Shown here: positions 3,510 through 50,000 of the stretch, piece by piece
How the letters are laid out: each line of letters opens with the position of its first letter
Numbering within the stretch: the stretch's first letter is position 1
The notes under the pieces: model-generated
The model's input: only the letters and a program-made list of their open reading frames with translations
Databases searched by the model: none
Told to the model about the DNA's origin: nothing
Made by a program: the position numbers and the translations under genes
Virus record (IMG/VR): IMGVR_UViG_3300000203_000003
Span: 1 to 64,000 of that record
Source of the DNA: a virus
Taxonomy: Duplodnaviria > Caudoviricetes
Reading direction: 5' to 3' (one strand)
DNA length: 64,000 bases

Positions 3510-3953
3510 ATGGTAACATTCTTTCAGCACTTTATATCTCTATAGTCAGGTTCACCCGGCTATATGGGTCGATGTTATGTGAAGTATGGAAACGTAAAAC
3601 ATTGTTGTAATCCCTTCGAAATGAAGGCGGGCAAGACGCGAGTTCGAATCTCGCCAGGTCCACCAGTAAACACTATTAAAGATGCGATAACATCAACTCT
3701 CAGGGCTGGTACACCACATACCTCTCGAAGAAAGTATGTATAGACCGTATAGTGTTTACTAATGGGCCTGCTCTGGTAATCGATTGCGCGAGATAGTAGA
3801 GACGGCAACAGGAACGATGATGGACCTAATCCACATAAAAACGAGAAATGCAAATGACTCACAATTCCTAATGGTTGCCTAAACAGCACCACAGGCGAGG
3901 TAGAAAGACCTTGTAACCAAACCAATCAGAAAGGCTCTTCGGAGCCTTTTCTT
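3510..3953 (+). ncRNA. ssrA: Circularly permuted (two-piece) tmRNA; tag (A)ANDSQFLMVA*
   Basis: T-arm GCGAG-TTCGAAT-CTCGC plus CAGGTCC-A-CCA ending at 3665 comes before the 5' acceptor strand GGGCCTG at 3764 (G3-U70 pair). The intervening segment is closed by AGTAAACACTA/TAGTGTTTACT. Tag ORF at 3850-3882; terminator follows. 5' boundary approximate. Confidence 0.9.
3929..3953 (+). terminator. Intrinsic terminator
   Basis: GAAAGGCTC-TTCG-GAGCCTTTTCTT; near-identical to 6566..6593. Confidence 0.85.
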
Positions 3954-11620: not shown

Positions 11621-12928
11621 ATGGCAGTCGCAAACACTACGCTAAATCAGCCCAAAAAGCAGAAAAAGCTTCGGTCCAAAAAGTATGAAAATCTCATTGG
11701 TCCCTGCGACCCAAAGATTGACTTTCAAGCGCGTGAGCGCCTTGTCACTGCCCGCATTGGTCTGTTGCTGCGTCACTCTTTCTTCGGCAATCTCGCAACC
11801 CGTCTCAAACTGATTAACGCCGATGAGTGGTGTTCAACAGCCGCAACTGACGGGCTGAACTTCTATTACAACAGTCGCTTCATCATGCTCCTGAAGGTCA
11901 AGGAAGTTGAATTCCTTGTAGGGCATGAGGTGCTCCACGTTGTGTATGATCATATGGGTCGGCGTATGAGCCGTGATCCGCAAATGTGGAACATCGCGGA
12001 CGACTATGTTGTTAACGCGGACCTGAAACGTCACAAGATTGGGCAGTTCATTACCTCTGTTCCTTGTCTCTACGAACAAAAGTATGACGGCAAATGCGCT
12101 GAGGAAGTCTATGACGACCTGATGAAGAATGTCCAGAAGATCAGCATCGATGACCTCATTGATCAAATGCTTGACGATCACATGGAAGGTGATCAGCCCG
12201 GTGACGGCGATGAAGATGGCGACAAAGATGGCAAGGGCAAAGGCAAGGGTCGTCCTCAACTGTCTGACGAGGAGCGTGAGCGTATTCGTCAGGAAGTCAA
12301 GCAGGCTATCATCAGTGCTGCTCAAGGGTCTGATGCAGGTTCACTGCCTGCAGGTGTCGAGCGTCTGGTCCGTGATATCACTGACCCTGTTATGCCCTGG
12401 CGCGAACTGCTCCAGACAAATCTGACAAGTGCTATCCGCAACGATTACAGCTGGACTCGTCCCAGTCGTCGTTCTTGGCACATGGATGCTATCATGCCCG
12501 GCATGACGCCCGGCGAAGAGATTGATGTGACTGTCGCGCTTGACTTGTCAGGTTCTATCAGTGAGCGCCAAGCTTCAAACTTTCTAGGTGAAATCGCAGG
12601 CATGATGGGATCGTTTGCAGGCTACAAGGTGCATGTGTTTTGCTTCGACACCAAGACATACAATCCTGCTGACTTTGACAGCGACAACATGGACACCATC
12701 GAGGAATATGTTCCCGAAGGTGGCGGCGGCACTGACTTCGATTGTATCTTTGACTACCTCAAAGACAACGATATCAGCCCGAAACGTCTGATTGTGTTCA
12801 CTGATGGCTACCCCTGCGGCAGCTGGGGCGATGCTGAATACTGCGACACTACTTGGATCATTCACGGTGATCGTGACCCGCATCCCCCGTTCGGCACGTT
12901 TGCTCTTTACGACAATAAGACAGAATGA
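11621..12928 (+). CDS. HExxH metallopeptidase plus VWA domain protein (MoxR partner)
   Basis: TAATDG, HEVLH, DLSGSI MIDAS, GGGGTDF, FTDG. Confidence 0.85.
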   Translation: MAVANTTLNQPKKQKKLRSKKYENLIGPCDPKIDFQARERLVTARIGLLLRHSFFGNLATRLKLINADEWCSTAATDGLNFYYNSRFIMLLKVKEVEFLVGHEVLHVVYDHMGRRMSRDPQMWNIADDYVVNADLKRHKIGQFITSVPCLYEQKYDGKCAEEVYDDLMKNVQKISIDDLIDQMLDDHMEGDQPGDGDEDGDKDGKGKGKGRPQLSDEERERIRQEVKQAIISAAQGSDAGSLPAGVERLVRDITDPVMPWRELLQTNLTSAIRNDYSWTRPSRRSWHMDAIMPGMTPGEEIDVTVALDLSGSISERQASNFLGEIAGMMGSFAGYKVHVFCFDTKTYNPADFDSDNMDTIEEYVPEGGGGTDFDCIFDYLKDNDISPKRLIVFTDGYPCGSWGDAEYCDTTWIIHGDRDPHPPFGTFALYDNKTE

Positions 12929-14673: not shown

Positions 14674-15291
14674 CTAATCTTCGCGTTGATTTGTATGAAG
14701 TCTCCACCCGTGGATAGATGACTGCTTGCCCTTAATTACTCTACTAAGATTGCCTGCCTCAATGTTGTGTTTCATTCGGAACTCATATTGAGGCATTCTT
14801 ATTACTTCTCCCGATCGTATATTCTCAAACCGGTATACAGTAGAATCAAACCGTGGATTTTTATCAGGGGAATAGTCTACTCGCCTCATGTAATGATTTA
14901 CTCCCGAGAATTTGTCCTTCACATCTTGTTTAGTCGCAGGATTATTGTTACCACGCAGTTTATCCTTTGAACTCTCCTGCCAAACAATGTTAGAAGCACC
15001 TTCACCACCGTCAGTTTTATTTCGGAGTATTCCTGTGTTAATGTCCTTGCGGCCATACCACCTTATTAACCGACGCTCAATCGCAAATGCCCCAATTTCA
15101 GAAAGATTTGTTTCGTGGATTACAATTCTTCTTTCGTCTTTCGGGGTCCAAACCCCCTTGCCGGATTTCCTATGTTGTTGCCATGCCCGAACGCCGGAAC
15201 CCTTGCCTATATAGTAAGGAGTATGATCCTCACGAAGATAGGCATAAGTATAAAATCCTTCTGGTGGGTGATTTCTTGAATAAATAGTCAT
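14674..15291 (-). CDS. GIY-YIG homing endonuclease
   Basis: [31 protein letters not shown]; C-terminal HTH-like domain. Confidence 0.85.
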
Positions 15292-15357
15292 GCTGATGCT
15301 CCTCTAAAGCGTTAGAGAGGGCGGGAATGTCCGTTCCGTGGCTCTCACTTTTATTTA
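15281..15357 (+). ncRNA. HEG-leader module copy A (candidate antisense sRNA between convergent TAAATA promoters)
   Basis: TAAATA..CTGATGCT/AGCGTTAG..GAGGGC-G-GGAA/TTCC-GTG-GCTCTC..ACTTTTATTTA. Confidence 0.7.
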
Positions 15358-24229: not shown

Positions 24230-26092
24230 ATGCCTAAAAATGCTGAATCACTAAACAACTCGCTATTTGAACTACTAAGGTCACGCGGATATAACCCGAC
24301 TTTACTTGGTACAGATGGTAAAGAAATTCCTGTCCCAGACGAAGCCGAAGTATTTCAGTTTCACTTTGTCAAGGATGATAAGGACTACGGTCCCGTAACT
24401 ATCTCTATCGACGGTCTACACAAACTTGTAGTTTACTTCGGCGACAGCGTTGCTAAGAGTCCGTCTGAACAAAGTCACAACGAAGATACCAGCTGGTATT
24501 CTCTGTTGAACCATCTAAAGCGTTTCAGCCAACAACATCAACTCAGTTTTGAAGTTAAAAACACAGACCATTTGAAATACGACATGGCAAAAAGGAATCA
24601 TATGAAAAAGATTGACGAACAAGCAAAATGGCGCCAAGGTTACTCCGCATCCGGTCACCCAGCTGGCTACAAGCACAAGTCAGGTGAAGTTGGTCCGGTA
24701 GGAGGAACATTCATCAATGAGCCTAGCGGATATGATGGAGAAACAAAGAAATTTCCCGTTCAAAAACATCGTGATAAGGAAGATGAATTAGCAGGTCGCG
24801 CAGGTACGAAATTATCAACTACTGGCAAACCATTGATTCCTAAGAATGCCCAAAAGAATTTAAAGGGTGCCATTAAACAATCTAAAGGAAAGCATGGTCC
24901 TGTCGGGCATCTACCTGAAAGCATCGCAGAAGGTTACTACCCAATGGGCAAGAAAGCAAGTTATTCTGACTCTGTGCCTCAGGTCAAGATCATTCTACAG
25001 CACTCCAGACAACTGGAAGAAGGTGAACGCCGTTATCGTGCGATTGAACGCATCTTTGTTGAGAATGCCAATGGTGAAAGATTTTTACTTGACACCAAGA
25101 AGCCAGGATTGGCCCGTGTATATGCCCGTCATATTGCTGAAGGGGGCACTCCATACGATGAGCAAGGCAAACACATTCACTCGCTTGTTGAAGAATACAC
25201 CAAGATGGCGGGTTTTGTTCGTGCTACTCGCAATGGTCAGTTCAATGAATCAGCACAATCGTTAGTGAATGAGGGAATCAACCATTACAATAATCTGCGT
25301 GAGCAACTACACAAAATGTCCGGTCATCGTGGATACACCGCATACTTTGAAAGCTGGTCTCCTACATTAACCGAAGATGAAGATACAACTGACCTAAGTG
25401 AGATGTTCGCCAGCACAGCACTTGATCCAAGAATTGAATCAGTGATGCCAATTTTGAACAAGTTGAAGAAGAACATTTCTGAAGTTGATCACTCTGCTGA
25501 ATTGGCCGAGTGGGCTGACGCAGTTATTGAAGAATCTCTTGGTCTTGCTGAAGTTTCAAACGAGTTACTCGGTCGTTATAAAAAAAACGCTGGTCACCAG
25601 GCCAGTACCGCTGATGCAGGTGCCGCAGGTGCGTATTCTGCAGGATCTTCTGGTAAAGATTTAGGAGATCGATTGACCAAACTTGGTAACAAGCGATTCA
25701 AGGGTATAGTCAAAGCCACACTTAAACAGTTCGCCAATGATAAGCCTAAGCAAGTTGCTGAGGCTGATGGCCTAGAAGCACTCAACGCCCAAGGTATTCC
25801 TGAAGATGGACACGGTGTGGCGGAAGATATAGGCCCAGAACAAAAGCGTGTCGGTCAGCTTGGTCCTAAAGATAAGGTCGGTCCAAAAGGAGCCGTCGGT
25901 AAGTTAGTCGGAGCATGTGAGAGTGCCGATAAAAAGAAGCCAGACTTCGCTGCCAGGTTCCAAAAGAATCTGGAACAGACTAAGAAACAAGCTGATGACA
26001 CCGAAGATAAGATCAAGCAACACACTGAGAAGAAACCAGTGAAAGAGGGTGATGAAGGGCTTGACGCAATCAAACGTCTATTGGGTAAATAA
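24230..26092 (+). CDS. Late protein, probable head-internal/core protein
   Basis: Late promoter; many (I/L/V)-x-E sites; modular low-complexity segments. Confidence 0.5.
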   Translation: MPKNAESLNNSLFELLRSRGYNPTLLGTDGKEIPVPDEAEVFQFHFVKDDKDYGPVTISIDGLHKLVVYFGDSVAKSPSEQSHNEDTSWYSLLNHLKRFSQQHQLSFEVKNTDHLKYDMAKRNHMKKIDEQAKWRQGYSASGHPAGYKHKSGEVGPVGGTFINEPSGYDGETKKFPVQKHRDKEDELAGRAGTKLSTTGKPLIPKNAQKNLKGAIKQSKGKHGPVGHLPESIAEGYYPMGKKASYSDSVPQVKIILQHSRQLEEGERRYRAIERIFVENANGERFLLDTKKPGLARVYARHIAEGGTPYDEQGKHIHSLVEEYTKMAGFVRATRNGQFNESAQSLVNEGINHYNNLREQLHKMSGHRGYTAYFESWSPTLTEDEDTTDLSEMFASTALDPRIESVMPILNKLKKNISEVDHSAELAEWADAVIEESLGLAEVSNELLGRYKKNAGHQASTADAGAAGAYSAGSSGKDLGDRLTKLGNKRFKGIVKATLKQFANDKPKQVAEADGLEALNAQGIPEDGHGVAEDIGPEQKRVGQLGPKDKVGPKGAVGKLVGACESADKKKPDFAARFQKNLEQTKKQADDTEDKIKQHTEKKPVKEGDEGLDAIKRLLGK

Positions 26093-26100
26093 GTTCTCAA

Positions 26101-26125
26101 AAACCTCACTTAAAAGGTGAGGTTT
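26101..26125. terminator. Hairpin, probable terminator
   Basis: AAACCTCAC-TTAAAAG-GTGAGGTTT. Confidence 0.6.
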
Positions 26126-26138
26126 GCCATATTCCAGA

Positions 26139-26213
26139 TAAATAGTAGTGAGGATCACGGCCGGCAAGCCCACCCTCTCTAACGCCGTGAAAGGGCATCA
26201 GCATGAATATTTA
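26139..26213 (-). ncRNA. HEG-leader module copy B
   Basis: On the - strand: CTGATGCC/GGCGTTAG; GAGGGT-G-GGC/GCC-GTG-ATCCTC; TAAATA at both ends. Confidence 0.7.
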
Positions 26214-26856
26214 TTCAAGACAAAATCCACCCGAAGGTTTCTATGTATATGCCTACCTACGCGAAGATGGCACCCCGTATTACATTGGCAAGGGGAAAGC
26301 AAAACGAGCCTGGTATAAATCACCCGGTGAAGTTTATCCGCCCATAAATAAATCTAAAATAATCATTGTAGAGAAAAATTTAACTGAAGTGGGCGCTCTG
26401 TCTATTGAACGCCGGCTAATACGTTGGTATGGGAGAAAAGATGAGAATACCGGAATTCTACGAAACAAAACTGAGGGAGGGGACGGTGTATCAGGGTTAG
26501 TTCATTCTGCTGAATCCAAGAATAAAATGAGTGTTGCTAAGACGGGTAAAAAGCAACCTAAAATAAGTAAGGCTAAGCAGGGTATACCATTACCCCAGGA
26601 GACAAAACTAAAAATGAGCATATCCCATCGCGGTAAAATTCACACTGATGAACATAATAGAAAAGTATCAATCGCATTAACGGGCAAGAAGTTATCTCCC
26701 GATCATTGTACCGCCATCAGTGAGAGCCATAAAGGATATGTTCATAGTGAGGAATCCAACGTAAAACGATCCATAGCACTACGAGGTCGCCCACAATCTC
26801 CTGAGTCCATTCAAAAACGTCTTTTAACAAGATTAAAAAATAAAATAGCAATTTAA
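26203..26856 (+). CDS. GIY-YIG homing endonuclease with NUMOD3 repeats
   Basis: [16 protein letters not shown]; repeated HS.E..KMS.(A/S)..GK. Confidence 0.88.
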
Positions 26857-26866
26857 CCGAAAGGAC

Positions 26867-26904
26867 TAAATACTATTGCTCATTGATGTTTATTATGCTA
26901 TAAT
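26867..26904 (+). promoter_or_regulatory. Late TAAATA plus TTGCTC-17-TATAAT promoters for SSB
   Basis: Direct match. Confidence 0.65.
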
Positions 26905-26987
26905 AAGCACTGATGTTCAGTTACTTCATGCCGAGGTAGCGAATACAAAAACCGACACCATGTCAATTTAAATAAAGGAAATATATC

Positions 26988-27971
26988 ATGGCAACATCAC
27001 TCGCTGAAATCAGGGCCCGCATTGCGGCCGCAGAAAACAAACAAAATACTCCCCGCGCTTCCGCAGACAATTCTATATATTGTCATTGGAACATGGACGA
27101 AGGCACCACAGCTACACTTCGGTTTCTGCCTGACGCCGACACAAACAACCCTTACTTTTGGACCGAACGCCAAATCATAAAACTCCCCTTCAATGGTGTA
27201 AAGGGTGACCCAGCAGCCAAGCGGGTCGAGGTCCAGGTACCATGTATAGAAATGTTTGGACCTGAATATCACTGCCCAATCTTGGCAGAAGTTCGCCCTT
27301 GGTATAAGGATGAAACTCTCAAGGAACTTGCCAACAAGTACTGGAAGAAACGCGCTTATCTGTTCCAAGGATTTGTCCGTGCAAACCCAATCGGCGATGA
27401 CAAGGCACCAGCGAACCCAATTCGTCGTTTCATCATCAGTCCGCAAATCTTTACTATCGTCAAAGCATCTTTGATGGATCCTGAAATGGAAGAACTGCCG
27501 ACTGACTTTCTGCGTGGTCTTGATCTGAACATCAAGAAAACATCGAAGGGCGGCTATGCTGACTATTCAACTAGCACATGGGCACGTAAGGAATCGGCTC
27601 TGACCGCAGCAGAACAAGAAGCAATCGACACCTTCAAGTTGTTTGATCTGGCTTCGTTTCTGCCGAAGAAGCCAAGCGAAGCGGAATTGAAAATCATCAA
27701 GGAAATGTTTGACGCATCCGTCGACGGCAAGCCGTATGACTTGGAACGCTGGGGTCAATACTATCGCCCATGGGGCCTTGATGCTCCGGCAGGTTCGACT
27801 CCGACAGCTACAGCACCTGCAGCGGAAGCACCCGCTTCTAAGGCACCCGAAGCATGGGAAGATGATGTGAAGTCGGCAGAAGCACCGATTGTTGTCCCCA
27901 AAGCAGCAAGTGGCGATAAGGCACAGGACATTCTCGCAATGATTCGTGCCCGTCAGACAAAAACTGTCTAA
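26988..27971 (+). CDS. Single-stranded DNA-binding protein (T4 gp32-like)
   Basis: LRFLPD, C.EM...CP, YWKKR.Y, KT.KGGYADYS.S.W; Ala/acidic tail. Confidence 0.85.
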   Translation: MATSLAEIRARIAAAENKQNTPRASADNSIYCHWNMDEGTTATLRFLPDADTNNPYFWTERQIIKLPFNGVKGDPAAKRVEVQVPCIEMFGPEYHCPILAEVRPWYKDETLKELANKYWKKRAYLFQGFVRANPIGDDKAPANPIRRFIISPQIFTIVKASLMDPEMEELPTDFLRGLDLNIKKTSKGGYADYSTSTWARKESALTAAEQEAIDTFKLFDLASFLPKKPSEAELKIIKEMFDASVDGKPYDLERWGQYYRPWGLDAPAGSTPTATAPAAEAPASKAPEAWEDDVKSAEAPIVVPKAASGDKAQDILAMIRARQTKTV

Positions 27972-35081: not shown

Positions 35082-35132
35082 TTGACATTAAATGGGTTTT
35101 CTGATATAATTGATACTTCAATCGAAACAAGG
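35082..35132 (+). repeat. 51-bp direct repeat copy 2
   Basis: Identical to 34796..34846. Confidence 0.9.
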
Positions 35133-35141
35133 AATTAATAA

Positions 35142-36188
35142 ATGGCTACAGTTCGTATTCTCAATGGCTCATATCGCAATCAACCTGTGGTCAATCAAAC
35201 ATTCACCTTGGTGAAAGGTTTCCAAACAGGTAAGACGGGTAGCTGGGTCACTGTAAAGAACGAAGGACAGTTCCCGCAGTTCGCTATTGACGAGGTCAAG
35301 ATCAAGGTCGGTAGCATCCAGGAACTCACATTCAACGGCGTCACGGTTGCTGATCAAATTGAAGATCATATCGAACTGGCGCCGGCCAAGCAAGTACAAG
35401 TTGAAACTGACGAGGCAGCAATGGATCGCATTGCTACTCGTTTCTCTGTTTTGGACGACATGTCCAAAGCTGCAATCAACGGCGACATTCGTGCAATGAT
35501 CGTCAGCGGTCCTCCTGGCGTCGGCAAGTCTTTCGGAGTCGAAACGCAACTGAACAAGGCGATCATGTTTGATCAGATCGCAGGCAAGAAGGTTCGCTTC
35601 AACATCGTTAAGGGTGCGATGACCGCGCTTGGTCTTTACGCTCAACTTTACAAATACAGTGACAAGAAAAACGTTCTGGTGTTCGATGACTGTGATTCAG
35701 TTTTCGCTGATGATCTGTCCCTGAACATTCTGAAGGCTGCGCTCGACTCTGGCAAGAATCGCAAGATTTGCTGGAACTCTGATTCGCGTCTGTTGCGCGA
35801 AGAAGGCATCCCGAATCAATTCAACTTCGCAGGCTCTGCGATTTTCATCACCAATTTGAAGTTCTCCAGTGTCAAGTCCAAGAAGTTGCAGGATCACTTG
35901 GAGGCTCTCCAATCTCGTTGTCACTTTCTTGACCTGACCGTGGATTCGGTAAGGGATAAACTTCTGCGTATCAAACAGGTCAATCGGGATGCTGATGGTG
36001 GTCTGTTCGTTGATTATGACTTTGATAACGGTGAGGGTGATATGATTATTGAATACATGGAGCAAAATCAAACCTCGTTAAATGAGATTTCAATGCGTAT
36101 GTGTTTGAAGATCGCCGACCTTGTCAAGATCAGTCCTAGTAACTGGCGCAATCTGGCCAATGTCACTTGCTGTAAAAATAAGCATTGA
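35142..36188 (+). CDS. AAA+ ATPase
   Basis: GPPGVGKS, VLVFDDCD, IFITN, ALQSR. Confidence 0.85.
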   Translation: MATVRILNGSYRNQPVVNQTFTLVKGFQTGKTGSWVTVKNEGQFPQFAIDEVKIKVGSIQELTFNGVTVADQIEDHIELAPAKQVQVETDEAAMDRIATRFSVLDDMSKAAINGDIRAMIVSGPPGVGKSFGVETQLNKAIMFDQIAGKKVRFNIVKGAMTALGLYAQLYKYSDKKNVLVFDDCDSVFADDLSLNILKAALDSGKNRKICWNSDSRLLREEGIPNQFNFAGSAIFITNLKFSSVKSKKLQDHLEALQSRCHFLDLTVDSVRDKLLRIKQVNRDADGGLFVDYDFDNGEGDMIIEYMEQNQTSLNEISMRMCLKIADLVKISPSNWRNLANVTCCKNKH

Positions 36189-36830
36189 TTTACAATTAGT
36201 GAAGTGGAAACGCTTCATATTTCCTTGACCCCCTGTTTGCCCACATTGTGGGCAAACCAATATTTGCTGTGGTTTGTGCTTTTGTCCGCGATTTGAGTTT
36301 GCTATCTTGGCAACCATTTCCGGAGATTTAGATACACCTAGCATCCTCAAACTTTTCCTTTTATTGGCTTCTGCGGAGTGTTTTGATATTTTCTTACCTG
36401 TCCGTGTGAGGGAGCGTTTCACCATAGAAGCCGCCGACATTTTCCTGCCTAACTGGGCCTTCCGCATTTTCTCTTTGGTAGCGTCAGACAGGGATTTCCC
36501 GGATAGTGCCGTGCGGCGCATCTCACTAAATTCATGTTTCAATGTCTCATATACTCTAGGCGCCATTCGATGAGATCCTGTGTGACACATCAATTTAATA
36601 GCATAAATCATTTTTTCGCGTGCCGCACCTTCAAGCATTTTAGGTAATAACCAGTGGCAGATGAAGTGTTCTCTGGCAGTTAGTTTGACGAGATTATTTT
36701 GGGTGTTATCTCAGCCAATAGACTTGGGTACGATGTGATGCCGTTCTGTATAACAGGGCAATATTCGGTTTTTGGCTCGTTCTATTATTCGGTAATAAGT
36801 TGCGGTATATTTGTTGTTGATAAATATCAT
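36090..36830 (-). pseudogene. HNH homing endonuclease interrupted by in-frame TGA (codon 40)
   Basis: ATG36830 MIFINNKY..ERHHIVPKSIG*DN..NLVKLTAREHFICHWLL, in frame with ORF 36638; paralog of 46094..46894. Confidence 0.82.
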
Positions 36831-36896
36831 TGCTGGTGTCCTCTACGACATTAGAGAGGGCGGAGATTGCAGTCTCGTGGCTCTCACTTCTATTTA
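36821..36896 (+). ncRNA. HEG-leader module copy C
   Basis: CTGGTGTC/GACATTAG; GAGGGC-G-GAGA/TCTC-GTG-GCTCTC; TAAATA at both ends. Confidence 0.7.
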
Positions 36897-38423: not shown

Positions 38424-38459
38424 CTTGACAACCCCCTCACTAACCTGCTATAATACACT

Positions 38460-39842: not shown

Positions 39843-40518
39843 ACCGGTATTCTCTTGTGAGTTTTGTCGCAGAGTATTCCTTCGTGAGAAAACCATGTTC
39901 ACGCATATATGTGAGCGGAAACATCGTTGGGCTGAAAAAGATAAACAGGGTCCTCGCATCGGCTTTCAAGCATGGCTACAGTTCTATGCGAAGAATTCAA
40001 TGGGCAAGAAGAATCGCACCCAGGAAGAGTTCATCAAAAGCGCATACTACACGGCGTTCATCAAGTTCGGAACATACTGTGCCGGCGCGAATGTTGTTAA
40101 TGTAAGTAGATACACTGACTGGCTGCTGAAAGAACAGATCCGAATTGACAGTTGGAATCAAGATACCAACTATACCAAATTCCTTATAGAGTATATCCGC
40201 GTCGAGGATCCGATGGATGCGCTGGCCCGCAGCATTGAAACGACAATCAAAATGGCTGAAACGGAACGGATTTTGGCGCATGATATTCTGCGTTATGGGA
40301 ACCCGAATAAGATATGCTATCAAATCACGCTTGGAAAGATAAGTCCCTGGATGCTTTACCAGAGCGAAAGTGGCGTAGAGTTTTTATCAAAACTAAATGC
40401 TGACCAAGTACGAATCATTAATGACTACATAAATCCCGAGCAATGGGCAATCAAGTTTAAACGGGATCCGGAATCAGCAACGCAAGTAAAAGACTTATTG
40501 GTCGCTGCTGGCTATTAA
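39802..40518 (+). CDS. Hypothetical protein with N-terminal zinc finger
   Basis: CEFC...F......H.C. Confidence 0.7.
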   Translation: MKKSTNTKPTEETKPVFSCEFCRRVFLREKTMFTHICERKHRWAEKDKQGPRIGFQAWLQFYAKNSMGKKNRTQEEFIKSAYYTAFIKFGTYCAGANVVNVSRYTDWLLKEQIRIDSWNQDTNYTKFLIEYIRVEDPMDALARSIETTIKMAETERILAHDILRYGNPNKICYQITLGKISPWMLYQSESGVEFLSKLNADQVRIINDYINPEQWAIKFKRDPESATQVKDLLVAAGY

Positions 40519-41087
40519 TTTAGCTGCTTTGGTTGCTTTACATTTAGCAATACTTTCAGCAGTATTAGTATTAAGTGTTCCGTTCTTGCGCCTGCTCTCT
40601 TTTAATTTAGCTTTGCTCTCATCAGTCCAAGTATTGAGATTACCGTTTTTGCGTCTGGTAGCGATTCGCTTGGCGATATTCTCCGGAGTAGGTTTTAATG
40701 TTCCGTTTGCTGCCATTGTTGCTAATCTTTTTTTGGTGCTTTCAGGCTTAGTTAAGTATGTATTGTTAGACCTCCGCGCCGCGACGACCTTGGCAATTAT
40801 TTCGGGGGTAGTACCGCCGTTACCGGATTCCGGTTTTAAGTTGGCCCATTCATCACTCTCGACAACGTTCCATTCTTCACTGTAATGGATTCCCATTCTT
40901 TAAGTTCATCTTTGGATTGGCACTCGCGGATTATTTCGGTTGTTATATCTTTGCCGTGTTTATTTAAATGGCGCTCCCAATGTAAACCTGAACCGAGGTA
41001 TTTGTGAGGATCTTTGCGTTTTGTCTGACAGAGGTATTTTAGACCGGTAATATTATGGGTCTTTACCATGAGGTAATAAATAGTCAT
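40495..41087 (-). pseudogene. GIY-YIG-type homing endonuclease split by a frameshift near 40893
   Basis: YLMVKTH..TGLKYL.QT..Y.GSG..W then ELKEW|GIHYS..WNVVES..WANL.PESG.GG in another frame; one G missing. Confidence 0.78.
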
Positions 41088-41160
41088 GCTGGTGCTCCTT
41101 ATTTAGTTATAGCATTAGAGAGGGTGGGAAGTCCAATTCCGCGATCCTCACTTCTATTTA
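41077..41160 (+). ncRNA. HEG-leader module copy D
   Basis: CTGGTGCT/AGCATTAG; GAGGGT-G-GGAA/TTCC-GCG-ATCCTC; TAAATA at both ends. Confidence 0.7.
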
Positions 41161-41168
41161 TCTTCGGC

Positions 41169-41197
41169 TTGACATTAAATCATTTTTATGTTATAAT
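41169..41197 (+). promoter_or_regulatory. Early promoter driving the small-gene array
   Basis: TTGACATTAAAT..TATAAT, 17-nt spacer. Confidence 0.8.
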
Positions 41198-44466: not shown

Positions 44467-45681
44467 ATGATGAATAAACCTATCTTCTGCGCTTTAGCCT
44501 TCGGATCCGTAAACATAACCACTGAAAATAAGTATTTACCTTGTTGTAATGTTGTACACGGGGAATACAAGTCTAACTACCTTGATCTAGACTCGCCGGG
44601 CGTGCCAACGGCCCGTCTTAATAATTCATGGTTAGTTGATGTGCGGCGGCACCTGAATCAGGGAATATGGCATGAATCTTGTTCATTGTGCGAACACTCA
44701 GAAAAACAAGGCGGTCAGTCGATGCGTAATATTTGGAATATTGCTCTTGCTGACTATTATATTCCCGCTGACTCGGTCGTGAATCCGGACCATGTCAGAT
44801 ATATTAGTGTGGCGTTTAGCAATAAGTGCAATAGCAAGTGCATGACTTGTTCTCCGGATAGCAGTAGCCTTTGGTATGAAGAATTCAATGAGATATCTCA
44901 GGATAAATACATTTACCAGATAATACCGTCGACGGACAGAATACATAGCACCCCGGCCGCACTTCTCAAAACTTTTCCAAATGCTGAACATATCTCTTTG
45001 TTGGGCGGCGAACCGACTATCGCATTTGAGCATGATTCTCTTATAAATGAATTAGTTACTTCTAACAGAAGTAAAAATGTCAGCTTGACGTATGTAACCA
45101 ATCTCACGGGAATCACAGACGAACTCTTAGAAACCTGGAAAAAATTTAAACATGTTACTATTATGGCGTCGATTGACGGGGTGGGGCTGAGTAATGAGTA
45201 TATACGATATCCATTTAAATGGGAAAAAATTGAAAGAAATCTAACACGCCTTTTTGAGTTATCAAAAACTGATCAAATATCAGTTGGATTAAGTTGTACT
45301 GCTGGCATGTTTAACTGCATTGATATTGCTGATTTATTGTTGTATTGGTATAATAAAAGTAAAGAATATGGAATTGATTTCGGAGTATATGTAAATATAG
45401 TGACTAATCCTGAATATGTCGTATCTAACATAATGACAGATAAACACAGATCCGAGGGAATAGAACGATTAAAAATCGTAAAGGAATTATTCGATGCTGA
45501 TACCAATTTAAATACATCCTATTCCGCAGCAGTATCTTTATTGATTACTCATTTGTCATTGCCCAGAGCGAACTCTGACCTTATTAATACTGCAAAGCAT
45601 TTCATATTAGCATCCGATAAATTTAGAAATAGGAGTATCAAAGACTATATTCCGAAAGTATGGCAAGACCTATTTGAATGA
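44467..45681 (+). CDS. Radical SAM protein with N-terminal Cys-rich (SPASM/Twitch-like) segment
   Basis: CNSKCMTC CxxxCxxC, GGEP, SIDG; N-terminal FC..PCC..C..C. Confidence 0.85.
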   Translation: MMNKPIFCALAFGSVNITTENKYLPCCNVVHGEYKSNYLDLDSPGVPTARLNNSWLVDVRRHLNQGIWHESCSLCEHSEKQGGQSMRNIWNIALADYYIPADSVVNPDHVRYISVAFSNKCNSKCMTCSPDSSSLWYEEFNEISQDKYIYQIIPSTDRIHSTPAALLKTFPNAEHISLLGGEPTIAFEHDSLINELVTSNRSKNVSLTYVTNLTGITDELLETWKKFKHVTIMASIDGVGLSNEYIRYPFKWEKIERNLTRLFELSKTDQISVGLSCTAGMFNCIDIADLLLYWYNKSKEYGIDFGVYVNIVTNPEYVVSNIMTDKHRSEGIERLKIVKELFDADTNLNTSYSAAVSLLITHLSLPRANSDLINTAKHFILASDKFRNRSIKDYIPKVWQDLFE

Positions 45682-46093: not shown

Positions 46094-46894
46094 CTATTGT
46101 CGATATTTACATTTATCGCCGTGCCACTTTTTAAGATTGGCGACATCCATTGATCTTTGACAATGGGGACAGGTGTCTAATATTTTTCTTTCCCCGAGAC
46201 CGAGAATCCATCCAATATTTAAATACGGACCAGTATCTTCCGGATCAAGTTGTTTTCTCTCGCTCGGATTGTTTGGATTATGTATCCATTGTTTCCCGGT
46301 GTTCGCTTCTTTGATTTTTTGTTTGTCTGCGTCAGTCCGACTTATTCCGATGTTCCATGGTTTTAGCCCGTTGACTACTAGTTTTTTCCTCGTTTCGGAC
46401 ATCTTGTGACACTCGGCCTCAGTTCTAGGGATACCTTTGTTCCATGCAGTTTTACCTCTCTTAGAAGCCGCAATGCGTTCTTTCCATTCTGGAGTGAATA
46501 TTTCAGTCGTTCTTTCAGGATGTTTTTTACCAAAGTTAGGATGGGCCTCTCCTCGTCGGCCCCGAAGAATCGCAGCCCGTTGTTCTTTGACTTGTTCGTA
46601 TATCCTAGATGATGGCTTGTATCTTTTGCCCAACTTCTTTGTATTAGACATGAACCACAGCGCATGAACCATTTTATATCTATTGTTACCTGTTGTAAAC
46701 TTTGGTAGAAGCAGATGACAGATGAAATGTTCCCGTGCAGTAAGTTTTACTATATTTGATGCGGCGTCCGTTCCGCCTAGGCTTCTAGGCAGAATATGGT
46801 GTTTCTCGGTATAGGCGTTCGGGTCATTTACCCTTGACAAGGCTACATTGATTATGTTATAATAACATTTATTATATTTGTTTAGTAAGTTCAT
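46094..46894 (-). CDS. HNH homing endonuclease with NUMOD repeats
   Basis: EKHHILPRSLGG..N.VKLTAREHFICH; WNKG repeats; C-terminal CPHC..H..KC. Confidence 0.87.
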   Translation of the reverse strand: MNLLNKYNKCYYNIINVALSRVNDPNAYTEKHHILPRSLGGTDAASNIVKLTAREHFICHLLLPKFTTGNNRYKMVHALWFMSNTKKLGKRYKPSSRIYEQVKEQRAAILRGRRGEAHPNFGKKHPERTTEIFTPEWKERIAASKRGKTAWNKGIPRTEAECHKMSETRKKLVVNGLKPWNIGISRTDADKQKIKEANTGKQWIHNPNNPSERKQLDPEDTGPYLNIGWILGLGERKILDTCPHCQRSMDVANLKKWHGDKCKYRQ

Positions 46895-49252: not shown

Positions 49253-49331
49253 TAAATAGAAGTGTAGTCCACGAGTCTCTTACCTCTCCGACTACTCTAC
49301 TGCTAAAAAGGAGCACCAGCATGAGTATTTA
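49253..49331 (-). ncRNA. HEG-leader module copy E (divergent, compensatory changes)
   Basis: On the - strand: CTGGTGCT/AGCAGTAG; GTAGTC-G-GAG/CTC-GTG-GACTAC. Confidence 0.65.
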
Positions 49332-50000
49332 TTCAAAAACCAATCCTCCCGAAGATTCCTATTTATACGCCTATTTACGAGAAGATGGGACGCCTTATTA
49401 TATCGGCAAAGGGACTTACAGACGAGCCTGGGAAAAGGGTAGAGGAGAAATTCAACTTCCTAGCGATAGAAACAGGATAGTAATATTAGAAGCCGGGTTG
49501 AACGAAGTAGGTGCGTTGGCGTTAGAGCGCCGATATATACGTTGGTACGGACGAATGGATAAGAATACAGGAATCCTTCGGAATATGACGGATGGCGGTG
49601 ACGGGGCAGCGGCGCAGTTCGTTCCGACGATTGTAAATTGTTACATAAAGTTATCACAACTAACTACCATGCTGCCTTATCCGAAACGCAGATAAAAACA
49701 AGGGCTAATAATTGTTCAGCCGGCCAACGAAATCGTTTTAAATTAACGCCCGAGTCAGTATTAACTAAAGAACGAAAGAGCAAATCGCATCAAGGTAAAT
49801 ATCTGATAATTAGTCCGGCCGGTGAATCTCATTCCGCGGCGTCGGGATTAAAAGAATTTGCCCTAATACATGGTGATCTATTGCAGGTAACATATTGGCA
49901 ATTATTCAACGCATATAGAAAATCTTATCATACAATCCCAACCAAAAGAATACGAAGTGATGCAAATAATTGGAAAGTAACCCGCATTGATAACGACTGA
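49321..50000 (+). pseudogene. GIY-YIG homing endonuclease split by a frameshift at GGGG 49603-49606
   Basis: [24 protein letters not shown]; adding one G joins it to ORF 49638..50000. Confidence 0.72.

Follow-up and report, generated by a model that had tools for sequence, protein, structure and literature searches.

A portable cassette with convergent TAAATA boxes heads homing-endonuclease genes of uncultured jumbo phages and carries a fold selected on the antisense strand

Why do the start regions of several homing-endonuclease genes in one phage genome share a single compact arrangement, and which of the two strands carries its conserved structure? The question arises from an IMG/VR virus record of 141,978 bp, whose completeness is put at 41%; its first 64,000 nucleotides are here called the window. 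An earlier note on this DNA had described five sites of one architecture at the 5' ends of five homing-endonuclease genes and had proposed that each gene carries its own cis-antisense small RNA. All five sites are present and share that architecture; they align over ~85 bp, and similarity falls off on either side. The unit is a portable cassette of 75-85 bp that heads many unrelated homing-endonuclease genes. On the gene strand, its order is a TAAATA box, N5, a G, hairpin A, hairpin B, the start codon and TATTTA. More specifically, the 5' part reads (A/G)ATAAATA, 2 nt and AGT, followed by hairpin A, which has a 6-bp stem, a C-R-C opposite one base, a 3-5-bp stem and a variable loop, with a T after it. 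Hairpin B, of 7-8 bp, starts with CUA, ends with CAG and holds the Shine-Dalgarno (SD) sequence in its loop; after it come a C, the start codon and TATTTA(T). The two convergent TAAATA boxes lie ~75 bp apart, each followed by N5 and a G. On the antisense strand, all five window copies fold into a G, hairpin 1, an A, hairpin 2 and an 11-nt U-rich tail, and this 3' tail, ACUUUUAUUUA, overlies the forward promoter box.

At copy 1, a 205-aa GIY-YIG-type endonuclease ORF containing YYIGKG is encoded at 14674..15291 on the minus strand. Its forward TAAATA box, the candidate late promoter of the endonuclease mRNA, is at 15352..15357 (-), and the inverted TAAATA box at 15281..15286 (+), a candidate antisense late promoter, is the TATTTA of codons 2-4 of the ORF on the minus strand. 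The predicted antisense RNA of ~66 nt occupies 15292..15357 (+), with the G at 15292, hairpin 1 at 15293-15315 (anti-SD CUCCUC in or next to its loop), hairpin 2 at 15317-15346 according to the predicted fold, and the U-rich tail at 15347-15357, where the predicted RNA ends. The minimum free energy (MFE) of this RNA is -21.6 kcal/mol (z -1.8), and that of the same interval on the sense strand is -12.2 (z -0.3). Copy 2 (26139..26213, +) has its forward box at 26139-26144, its ATG at 26203 and its TATTTA at 26208-26213; it heads a GIY-YIG-type endonuclease ORF of 217 aa (26203..26856, +), and its predicted antisense RNA runs from 26202 to 26139 on the minus strand. In copy 3 (36821..36896, -; predicted antisense RNA 36832-36896, +), the ATG at 36830 is shifted by 1 nt (CAGCAATG) and TATTTA is read as MIF. 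The gene behind it, an HNH endonuclease gene at 36090..36830 (-), is broken into a 39-aa ORF at 36711-36830 (...ERHHIVPKS) and a 182-aa ORF in another frame at 36090-36638. Copy 4 (41077..41160, -), in which the hairpin-B loop is longer, has its predicted antisense RNA at 41088-41160 (+) and precedes a broken endonuclease gene of the MTIYYLMVKTHNITGLKYL type (40495..41087, -; 83 aa + 133 aa). Copy 5 (49253..49331, +), with a predicted antisense RNA running from 49320 to 49253 (-), precedes a GIY-YIG-type endonuclease gene at 49321..50000 (+) that is apparently frameshifted (124 aa + 120 aa). The description of five homing endonucleases therefore stands as far as the cassette at each gene start is concerned, and has to be amended in that three of the genes are broken and copy 3 belongs to an HNH rather than a GIY-YIG gene. 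The three split genes have intact cassettes, and the splits could represent recent decay, assembly error or programmed frameshifting.

The cassette is repeated in the record and in related genomes. The pattern TAAATA-NN-AGTG-N5-CNCG gave 11 matches in the 141,978-bp record compared with 0 for the reversed control pattern, and a covariance model of the antisense strand recovered 12 copies, 7 on the minus and 5 on the plus strand, and nothing else; the twelfth copy, which has a 3-nt spacer, was found by this model. Two scans of IMG/VR, one with the 5'-part pattern and one with a 14-mer taken from hairpin A only, yielded at least 131 further distinct modules at at least 139 loci, on contigs of up to 524 kb, and these counts are lower bounds. 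The host clade of the cassette is an abundant group of uncultured jumbo phages. The large terminase of the record shows 42-50% identity to those of the jumbo phages Phosso, PA5oct, Vibrio 2.275.O and GAP32 and has 587 relatives in IMG/VR, the best 80 of the 587 being at 76-93% identity. Six modules were present in the 80 terminase-anchored loci. Among large relatives, three carried 4, 2 and 1 copies and two others carried 0, and such a patchy copy number fits the expectation for mobile endonuclease genes. A presence/absence polymorphism was observed downstream of the terminase and a virion protein, where window 26092-26988 was compared with four relatives (L268, L269, L290 and L263): the syntenic gap between the flanking genes measures 212-244 nt in the four relatives vs 896 nt here, where it contains cassette 2 and its endonuclease. 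With flanks that share no more than 45-70% protein identity, the comparison shows presence or absence at this locus but gives no nucleotide-level insertion boundaries.

Cultured phages gave no match by megablast of the locus or blastn of a consensus-like module, and the covariance model returned nothing credible from Sinorhizobium phage Phosso, PA5oct, Vibrio phage 2.275.O and GAP32 (best E 0.2). Bacterial and archaeal carriers were considered and rejected: the 14-mer AGTGTAGTTCGCGG matched at least 120 loci, the full module was in none of those listed, and the matches are attributed to chance in 596 Gb. Nor does the motif coincide with a described RNA family, a prospect that had been raised earlier; Rfam 15 placed no family on the modules at the gathering score in the window, nor at E<=1 in the 37 kb of sequence surrounding the 12 copies.

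The antisense fold is maintained by compensatory changes. In a covariance-model alignment of 90 distinct sequences, which are related to one another and were found with patterns derived from the module, 97.9% of cells held standard pairs on the antisense strand and 14 of 19 pairs had changed on both sides (336 cells). None of 500 shuffles reached the observed pairing or covariation, and pairing fell to 30-53% in a control in which the partners were slid by 1-3 columns. Since a model-fitted alignment can lean to its own structure and may favour it in these figures, we added a parse based on sequence anchors only, and this model-free parse agrees. The larger set thus bears out everything that had been read from five copies: the two hairpins, an internal loop of the form G x G(Y)G, the tail ACUUYUAUUUA and covariation between copies. 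The G / G-Y-G motif, in which one covarying pair lies between two unpaired G's, is nearly invariant. Hairpin 2 on the antisense strand has two conserved bulged G's and a mean energy of -9.8 kcal/mol, and the U-rich tail follows it. Its stem is interrupted by bulges, an 'AC' separates the stem from the U run, and a simple consensus terminator scan did not call this hairpin.

The type of non-Watson-Crick pair distinguishes the two strands, given that an A·C mismatch on the mRNA strand is a G·U pair on the antisense strand. In the anchor-based parse of 86 modules, the pairs of the mRNA strand comprised 1335 Watson-Crick, 191 A·C and 9 G·U. The covariance-model alignment counted 183 G·U on the antisense strand vs 11 on the sense strand; without one invariant G·U pair and a doubtful apical pair, the numbers are 92 and 5, and the wobbles are spread over 13 pair positions on the antisense strand vs 4 on the sense strand. 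In the same columns that are 97.9% paired on the antisense strand, standard pairs make up 87.8% of the cells on the sense strand. It follows from the A·C/G·U asymmetry that switches between G-C and A-U nearly always had an intermediate that still pairs on the antisense strand. Predicted energies agree with this, the RNAalifold value being -20.8 for antisense vs -12.9 for sense, and the MFE being lower on the antisense strand in 71 of 82 sequences. The five window copies reach -19.7 to -22.8 kcal/mol on the antisense strand (z -1.3 to -2.1), and on the sense strand they do no better than shuffles. For the hairpin over the SD, the mean is -6.1 on the antisense vs -2.6 kcal/mol on the sense strand, with the antisense version more stable in 84 of the 86 modules.

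Such a strong asymmetry argues that the fold was selected on the antisense strand, and, because modules lie on both genome strands, replication or a strand-specific mutation bias cannot cause it. The earlier note had drawn the same conclusion from several A-C mismatches, had considered the opposite outcome, covariation confined to the sense strand, which is not what we found, and had judged the arrangement unlike the sense-strand RBS-occluding hairpin of T4, in agreement with the weak sense SD hairpin predicted here. On this comparative evidence, the folded molecule under selection is one read from the strand opposite to the nuclease gene. A small ORF on the antisense strand, starting at the palindromic CATG, was considered as well and rejected, as its ATG is missing in 23 of 86 modules and stops fall anywhere between 2 and 22 codons; no conserved antisense ORF was found in the 86 modules. 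The cassette provides a clean worked example of how the asymmetry between G·U and A·C can assign the functional strand of a structure.

The forward TAAATA box lies 60-80 nt upstream of the ATG in all copies, and the same box stands before many other genes of the phage. In the record, ATAAATA occurs 49 and 26 times on the two strands vs ~24 expected, and many genes have it 4-5 nt or 16-21 nt upstream of their ATG. About ten genes have it exactly 4 nt before the ATG (for example at window 20177, 52460 and 55718, and at record 74602, 84523, 120241 and 128314), and a second class has it 16-21 nt upstream together with an SD. This distribution suggests that many of the phage's late mRNAs have little or no leader. 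In T4, a late promoter consists of an 8-bp box located roughly one helical turn upstream of the start, and it can fire in both orientations (PMC2988020). A related complete 348.7-kb genome with four modules encodes a late sigma factor of the gp55 type (phrog_12791, E 1.6e-70); sigma factors of this type were found in larger relatives only, and a search of this 41%-complete record for gp55, the T4 late sigma, gave no match. The likeness to the T4 late box and the late sigma in a relative make it reasonable to regard TAAATA as the putative late-promoter box of this clade.

Both boxes behave as elements of the module. When a search imposed neither of them, the forward box was present in essentially all true modules and the inverted box in 80 of 84, and both were present in all 6 modules found through the terminase gene, so the TATTTA that had been noticed in the first codons of five genes is a general feature. 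It had been interpreted as a second promoter pointing backwards over the leader, and two observations show that it is kept as a nucleotide element. Across 141 distinct downstream ORFs, TATTTA is read in all three frames (MxIY, MIF/MVF/MLF and MYL), and in 72 of 86 modules the inverted box keeps its N5 distance from the G that precedes antisense hairpin 1, even as the ATG shifts by one or two bases. The forward box has the corresponding N5-G spacing to hairpin A in 85 of 86. The inverted box thus appears to be promoter-like and not a by-product of protein coding. A closing stem between the boxes was ruled out, as the positions flanking them are paired at 0.51 vs 0.48 expected if independent; without covariation of their flanks, the boxes look like two separate sequence signals and not like the arms of such a stem. 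Immediately behind the forward box, 56% of modules have AA as the next two bases vs 10% of other boxes, and this lengthens the U tract on the antisense strand.

The genes behind the cassette are DNA endonucleases of roughly 130-310 aa. Among the 141 distinct downstream ORFs, 126 have at least 100 aa and the remainder are cut by contig ends or breaks. Pfam assigned the 122 complete downstream proteins to NUMOD3 (35), HNH_3 (11), HNH (8), GIY-YIG (4) and the I-TevI DNA-binding domain (3), together with HNH_5, HNH_4 and one each of TnsA-like, DUF559 (Vsr-like) and PvuRts1I-like; many of the proteins without those Pfam domains have obvious GIY-YIG-like N termini. Types of hairpin A, types of hairpin B and nuclease families are freely combined. 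For instance, an identical hairpin B is present at 26139, before a GIY-YIG gene, and at 73298, before an HNH gene, and another is shared by 15357 and 106036, whose hairpins A differ. This is consistent with a mosaic cassette and recombination inside it. The same genome also has cassette-free GIY-YIG genes directly behind ATAAATA-N4-ATG, at record positions 70534 (-) and 88459 (+) beyond the window, and a 435-aa HNH-family ORF (phrog_1314) at window 11621-12928 (+) lacks the module too. The genome thus combines at least two styles of expressing endonuclease genes.

Taking the strand of selection and the boxes together, we hold with moderate confidence, from sequence alone, that the cassette is a self-contained gene for a ~65-nt cis-antisense small RNA that limits expression of the endonuclease. 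In this scheme, the forward box would make the endonuclease mRNA, whose leader opens with hairpin A and has its SD within hairpin B, a hairpin kept deliberately weak, and the inverted box in codons 2-4 would be the late promoter of the ~65-nt antisense RNA starting at the G. The 5' hairpin of that RNA would present an anti-SD in its loop and upper stem, and the second hairpin, with its two conserved bulged G's and the U-rich tail ACUUUUAUUUA, would end the RNA over the forward promoter. As the complementarity of this RNA would be perfect over the leader as a whole, the SD and the AUG, pairing could block translation and/or mark the duplex for cleavage, and the sense promoter may in addition be disturbed by antisense transcription that runs across the forward box. 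The G·U bias would keep the antisense hairpins stable and at the same time leave the SD hairpin of the mRNA weak and open to pairing, and the combined effect would be a low output of nuclease late in infection. The firing of both boxes, the end of the RNA and the repression are predictions of this scheme. Because both RNAs would come from one promoter class at the same time, net repression would hinge on their relative stability and strength. The comparison with type I antitoxins made in the earlier note is best kept as an analogy, since in the classical pairs a labile antisense RNA blocks synthesis of a small hydrophobic toxin, with addiction or stress induction as the result, and the targets here are DNA endonucleases and not small membrane toxins; among type I toxin-antitoxin pairs, the architecture resembles only the atypical symE/SymR.

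An antisense RNA could also exist mainly for another purpose than silencing its own gene, as a scaffold that binds a phage or host factor able to recognise the bulged-G motif or as a trans-acting small RNA, or, in a variant of this idea, as one of a pool of related RNAs that cross-regulate all endonuclease leaders or SDs. We regard this as rather unlikely. Plain antisense pairing has no need of the strictly conserved bulged G's, and the near invariance of the G / G-Y-G motif hints at an extra partner; moreover, the loop of hairpin 1 is a generic anti-SD, and the leaders of different copies have long identical segments through which they could cross-pair. The RNA is nevertheless always tied to the start codon of a nuclease gene, which is a full-sized ORF in the great majority of cases, its complementarity lies exactly over the SD and AUG, and the nuclease folds are unrelated, which makes direct binding to each of them improbable. 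The invariant bulged G's also count against the silencing scheme, as they suggest an additional partner. A bolder proposal, to which we attach a similarly small weight, is that the RNA forms a new structured phage class in which the bulged-G hairpin may recruit a common protein of phage or host and the shared leaders may form a genome-wide network. If this were true, the network could set the total nuclease load, or resident endonuclease genes could suppress incoming competitors, and the latter would amount to RNA-level immunity between selfish elements.

It appears quite improbable that the inverted box is an outward late promoter for neighbouring genes, or an insulator, with hairpin 2 and the U tract attenuating or terminating transcription that passes through the endonuclease gene in the antisense direction. 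In T4, endonuclease genes often contain promoters that serve host genes downstream of them (PMC2988022), and window copies 1, 3 and 4 oppose their neighbours, so that the box points at the next plus-strand gene. However, 5 of the 12 copies in the record are codirectional with their neighbours, where the box aims back into the upstream gene, and the module is equally conserved in both orientations. The genes after copies 1, 3 and 4 also have sigma-70-like promoters of their own, seen by direct reading for copies 1 and 3 and confirmed by a promoter scan for copy 4 (41169-41197) and for other sites at 35-50 kb. Finally, an outward promoter leaves the anti-SD hairpin selected on the antisense strand unexplained.

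A role at the DNA level has a comparably low probability in our estimate. Here the cassette would be a portable homology patch by which nuclease genes are shuffled, in the manner of PeSL cassettes, or a hairpin signal in single-stranded DNA, and any RNA would be incidental. The mosaic of hairpins A, hairpins B and nuclease bodies, with an identical hairpin B next to different hairpins A and families within the record, speaks for it, promoter/stem-loop cassettes drive modular shuffling in T4-like phages (PMC4122927), and G·T is likewise tolerated in DNA hairpins. Yet a homology patch requires neither covariation nor strand asymmetry, and a cruciform would need pairing on both strands. A replication-linked single-stranded signal should track the orientation of the genome, whereas the observed asymmetry tracks gene orientation on both strands, and the N5 spacing of both boxes would have no explanation.

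Very unlikely is a T4-type control on the sense strand, in which the forward AUAAAUA of read-through transcripts would pair with the UAUUUAU after the AUG and hide the start region, and late transcripts starting inside the structure would be translated. In its favour, the boxes are exact inverted repeats, this logic is established for I-TevI, segB and mobE (PMC2988022), and RNAalifold draws a 7-bp closing stem, but on the antisense strand only. Against it, a multiloop would have to be closed by 6-7 A-U pairs, covariation is lacking at the positions that adjoin the boxes, the sense fold is no more stable than shuffles, and the SD hairpin has A·C mismatches on the sense strand and both of its arms downstream of the point where the late transcript is expected to start.

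The antisense reading places the cassette beside several known systems. Unrelated nuclease families in one phage clade use one portable cassette with a selected fold on the opposite strand; to our knowledge, T4 and its close relatives are the only phages for which it is known how free-standing homing endonucleases are kept harmless to their carrier, and there the control acts on the sense strand. A close parallel in layout is SymR of E. coli, a short cis-antisense RNA whose reverse promoter lies in the first part of symE, a nuclease-like toxin gene; it spans the SD together with the start codon, and its effect is mainly translational (PMC3874152, PMC4147584). The RNA predicted for the cassette would share this arrangement. 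SymE is, however, a 113-aa RNase-like protein under SOS control on a bacterial chromosome, while the targets of the cassette are phage homing endonucleases of ~130-310 aa with many folds, both of its putative promoters belong to the phage late class, and its covarying two-hairpin fold forms a portable unit; the two are related neither in sequence nor through Rfam. Reverse promoters and antisense RNA are likewise at work in the genes of the restriction endonucleases EcoRI and Eco29kI (PMC3874152), and there, too, a selfish DNA-endonuclease gene is held down by intragenic promoters facing the forward promoter. The distances inside the coding region are longer in those systems and no conserved structured RNA is involved, in contrast to the compact ~65-nt RNA predicted here, which spans the leader exactly.

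Among phages, CfrI is an antisense RNA to a homing-endonuclease gene of cyanophage S-PM2 (Millard et al. 2010, cited in PMC2984593). According to the account in the citing paper, it resembles the cassette in that the phage has T4-type late transcription and the antisense RNA is coexpressed with its endonuclease target, and differs in that CfrI has ~225 nt, links the endonuclease gene to psbA and occurs at one locus, whereas the cassette is repeated before many nuclease families. The T4-type scheme combines a late promoter with an RBS-sequestering hairpin at I-TevI, I-TevII, I-TevIII, segB and Aeh1 mobE (PMC2988022). It shares with the cassette a late promoter directly upstream, RNA structure around the SD and the apparent purpose, a tight limit on nuclease synthesis. 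In T4, however, the hairpin is on the sense strand with the late start inside it, whereas here the fold is selected on the antisense strand and the sense SD hairpin lies wholly downstream of the expected start. PeSL cassettes of T4-like phages, which comprise a terminator and an early promoter between hypervariable genes (PMC4122927, PMC2839356), are likewise short, repeated and conserved regulatory cassettes at gene boundaries that travel with, and seem to shuffle, unrelated genes. Unlike them, the cassette carries a pair of convergent late boxes, takes in the start codon and is confined to nuclease genes.

Should the RNA be confirmed, it would define a new and easily recognised RNA family with more than 140 distinct members, absent from Rfam, and would extend antisense control of selfish endonucleases from restriction systems and symE to phage homing endonucleases. 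It would also provide a compact, transferable module for limiting expression, with promoter, leader, silencer and start codon within ~80 bp.

Other features of the window were recorded alongside the cassettes. Rfam places a tmRNA gene at 3555-3952 (+), where beta_tmRNA scores 116 bits and an overlapping permuted-tmRNA match 95 bits; ARAGORN reported no tmRNA and no tRNA over the window. The betaproteobacterial type of this tmRNA may be a hint at the host. A radical SAM domain protein is encoded at 44467-45681 (+) amid replication genes (phrog_14086, E 3.6e-16). Perfect 12/12 sigma-70 promoters (TTGACA-N17/18-TATAAT, with TG before the -10) were observed on the plus strand at 35082-35110, 38425-38454, 41169-41197 and 46834-46863. 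The one at 41169 directly follows cassette 4, and promoter-like sequences also follow cassettes 1 and 3, which places these endonuclease genes between the end of a gene and the next early promoter.
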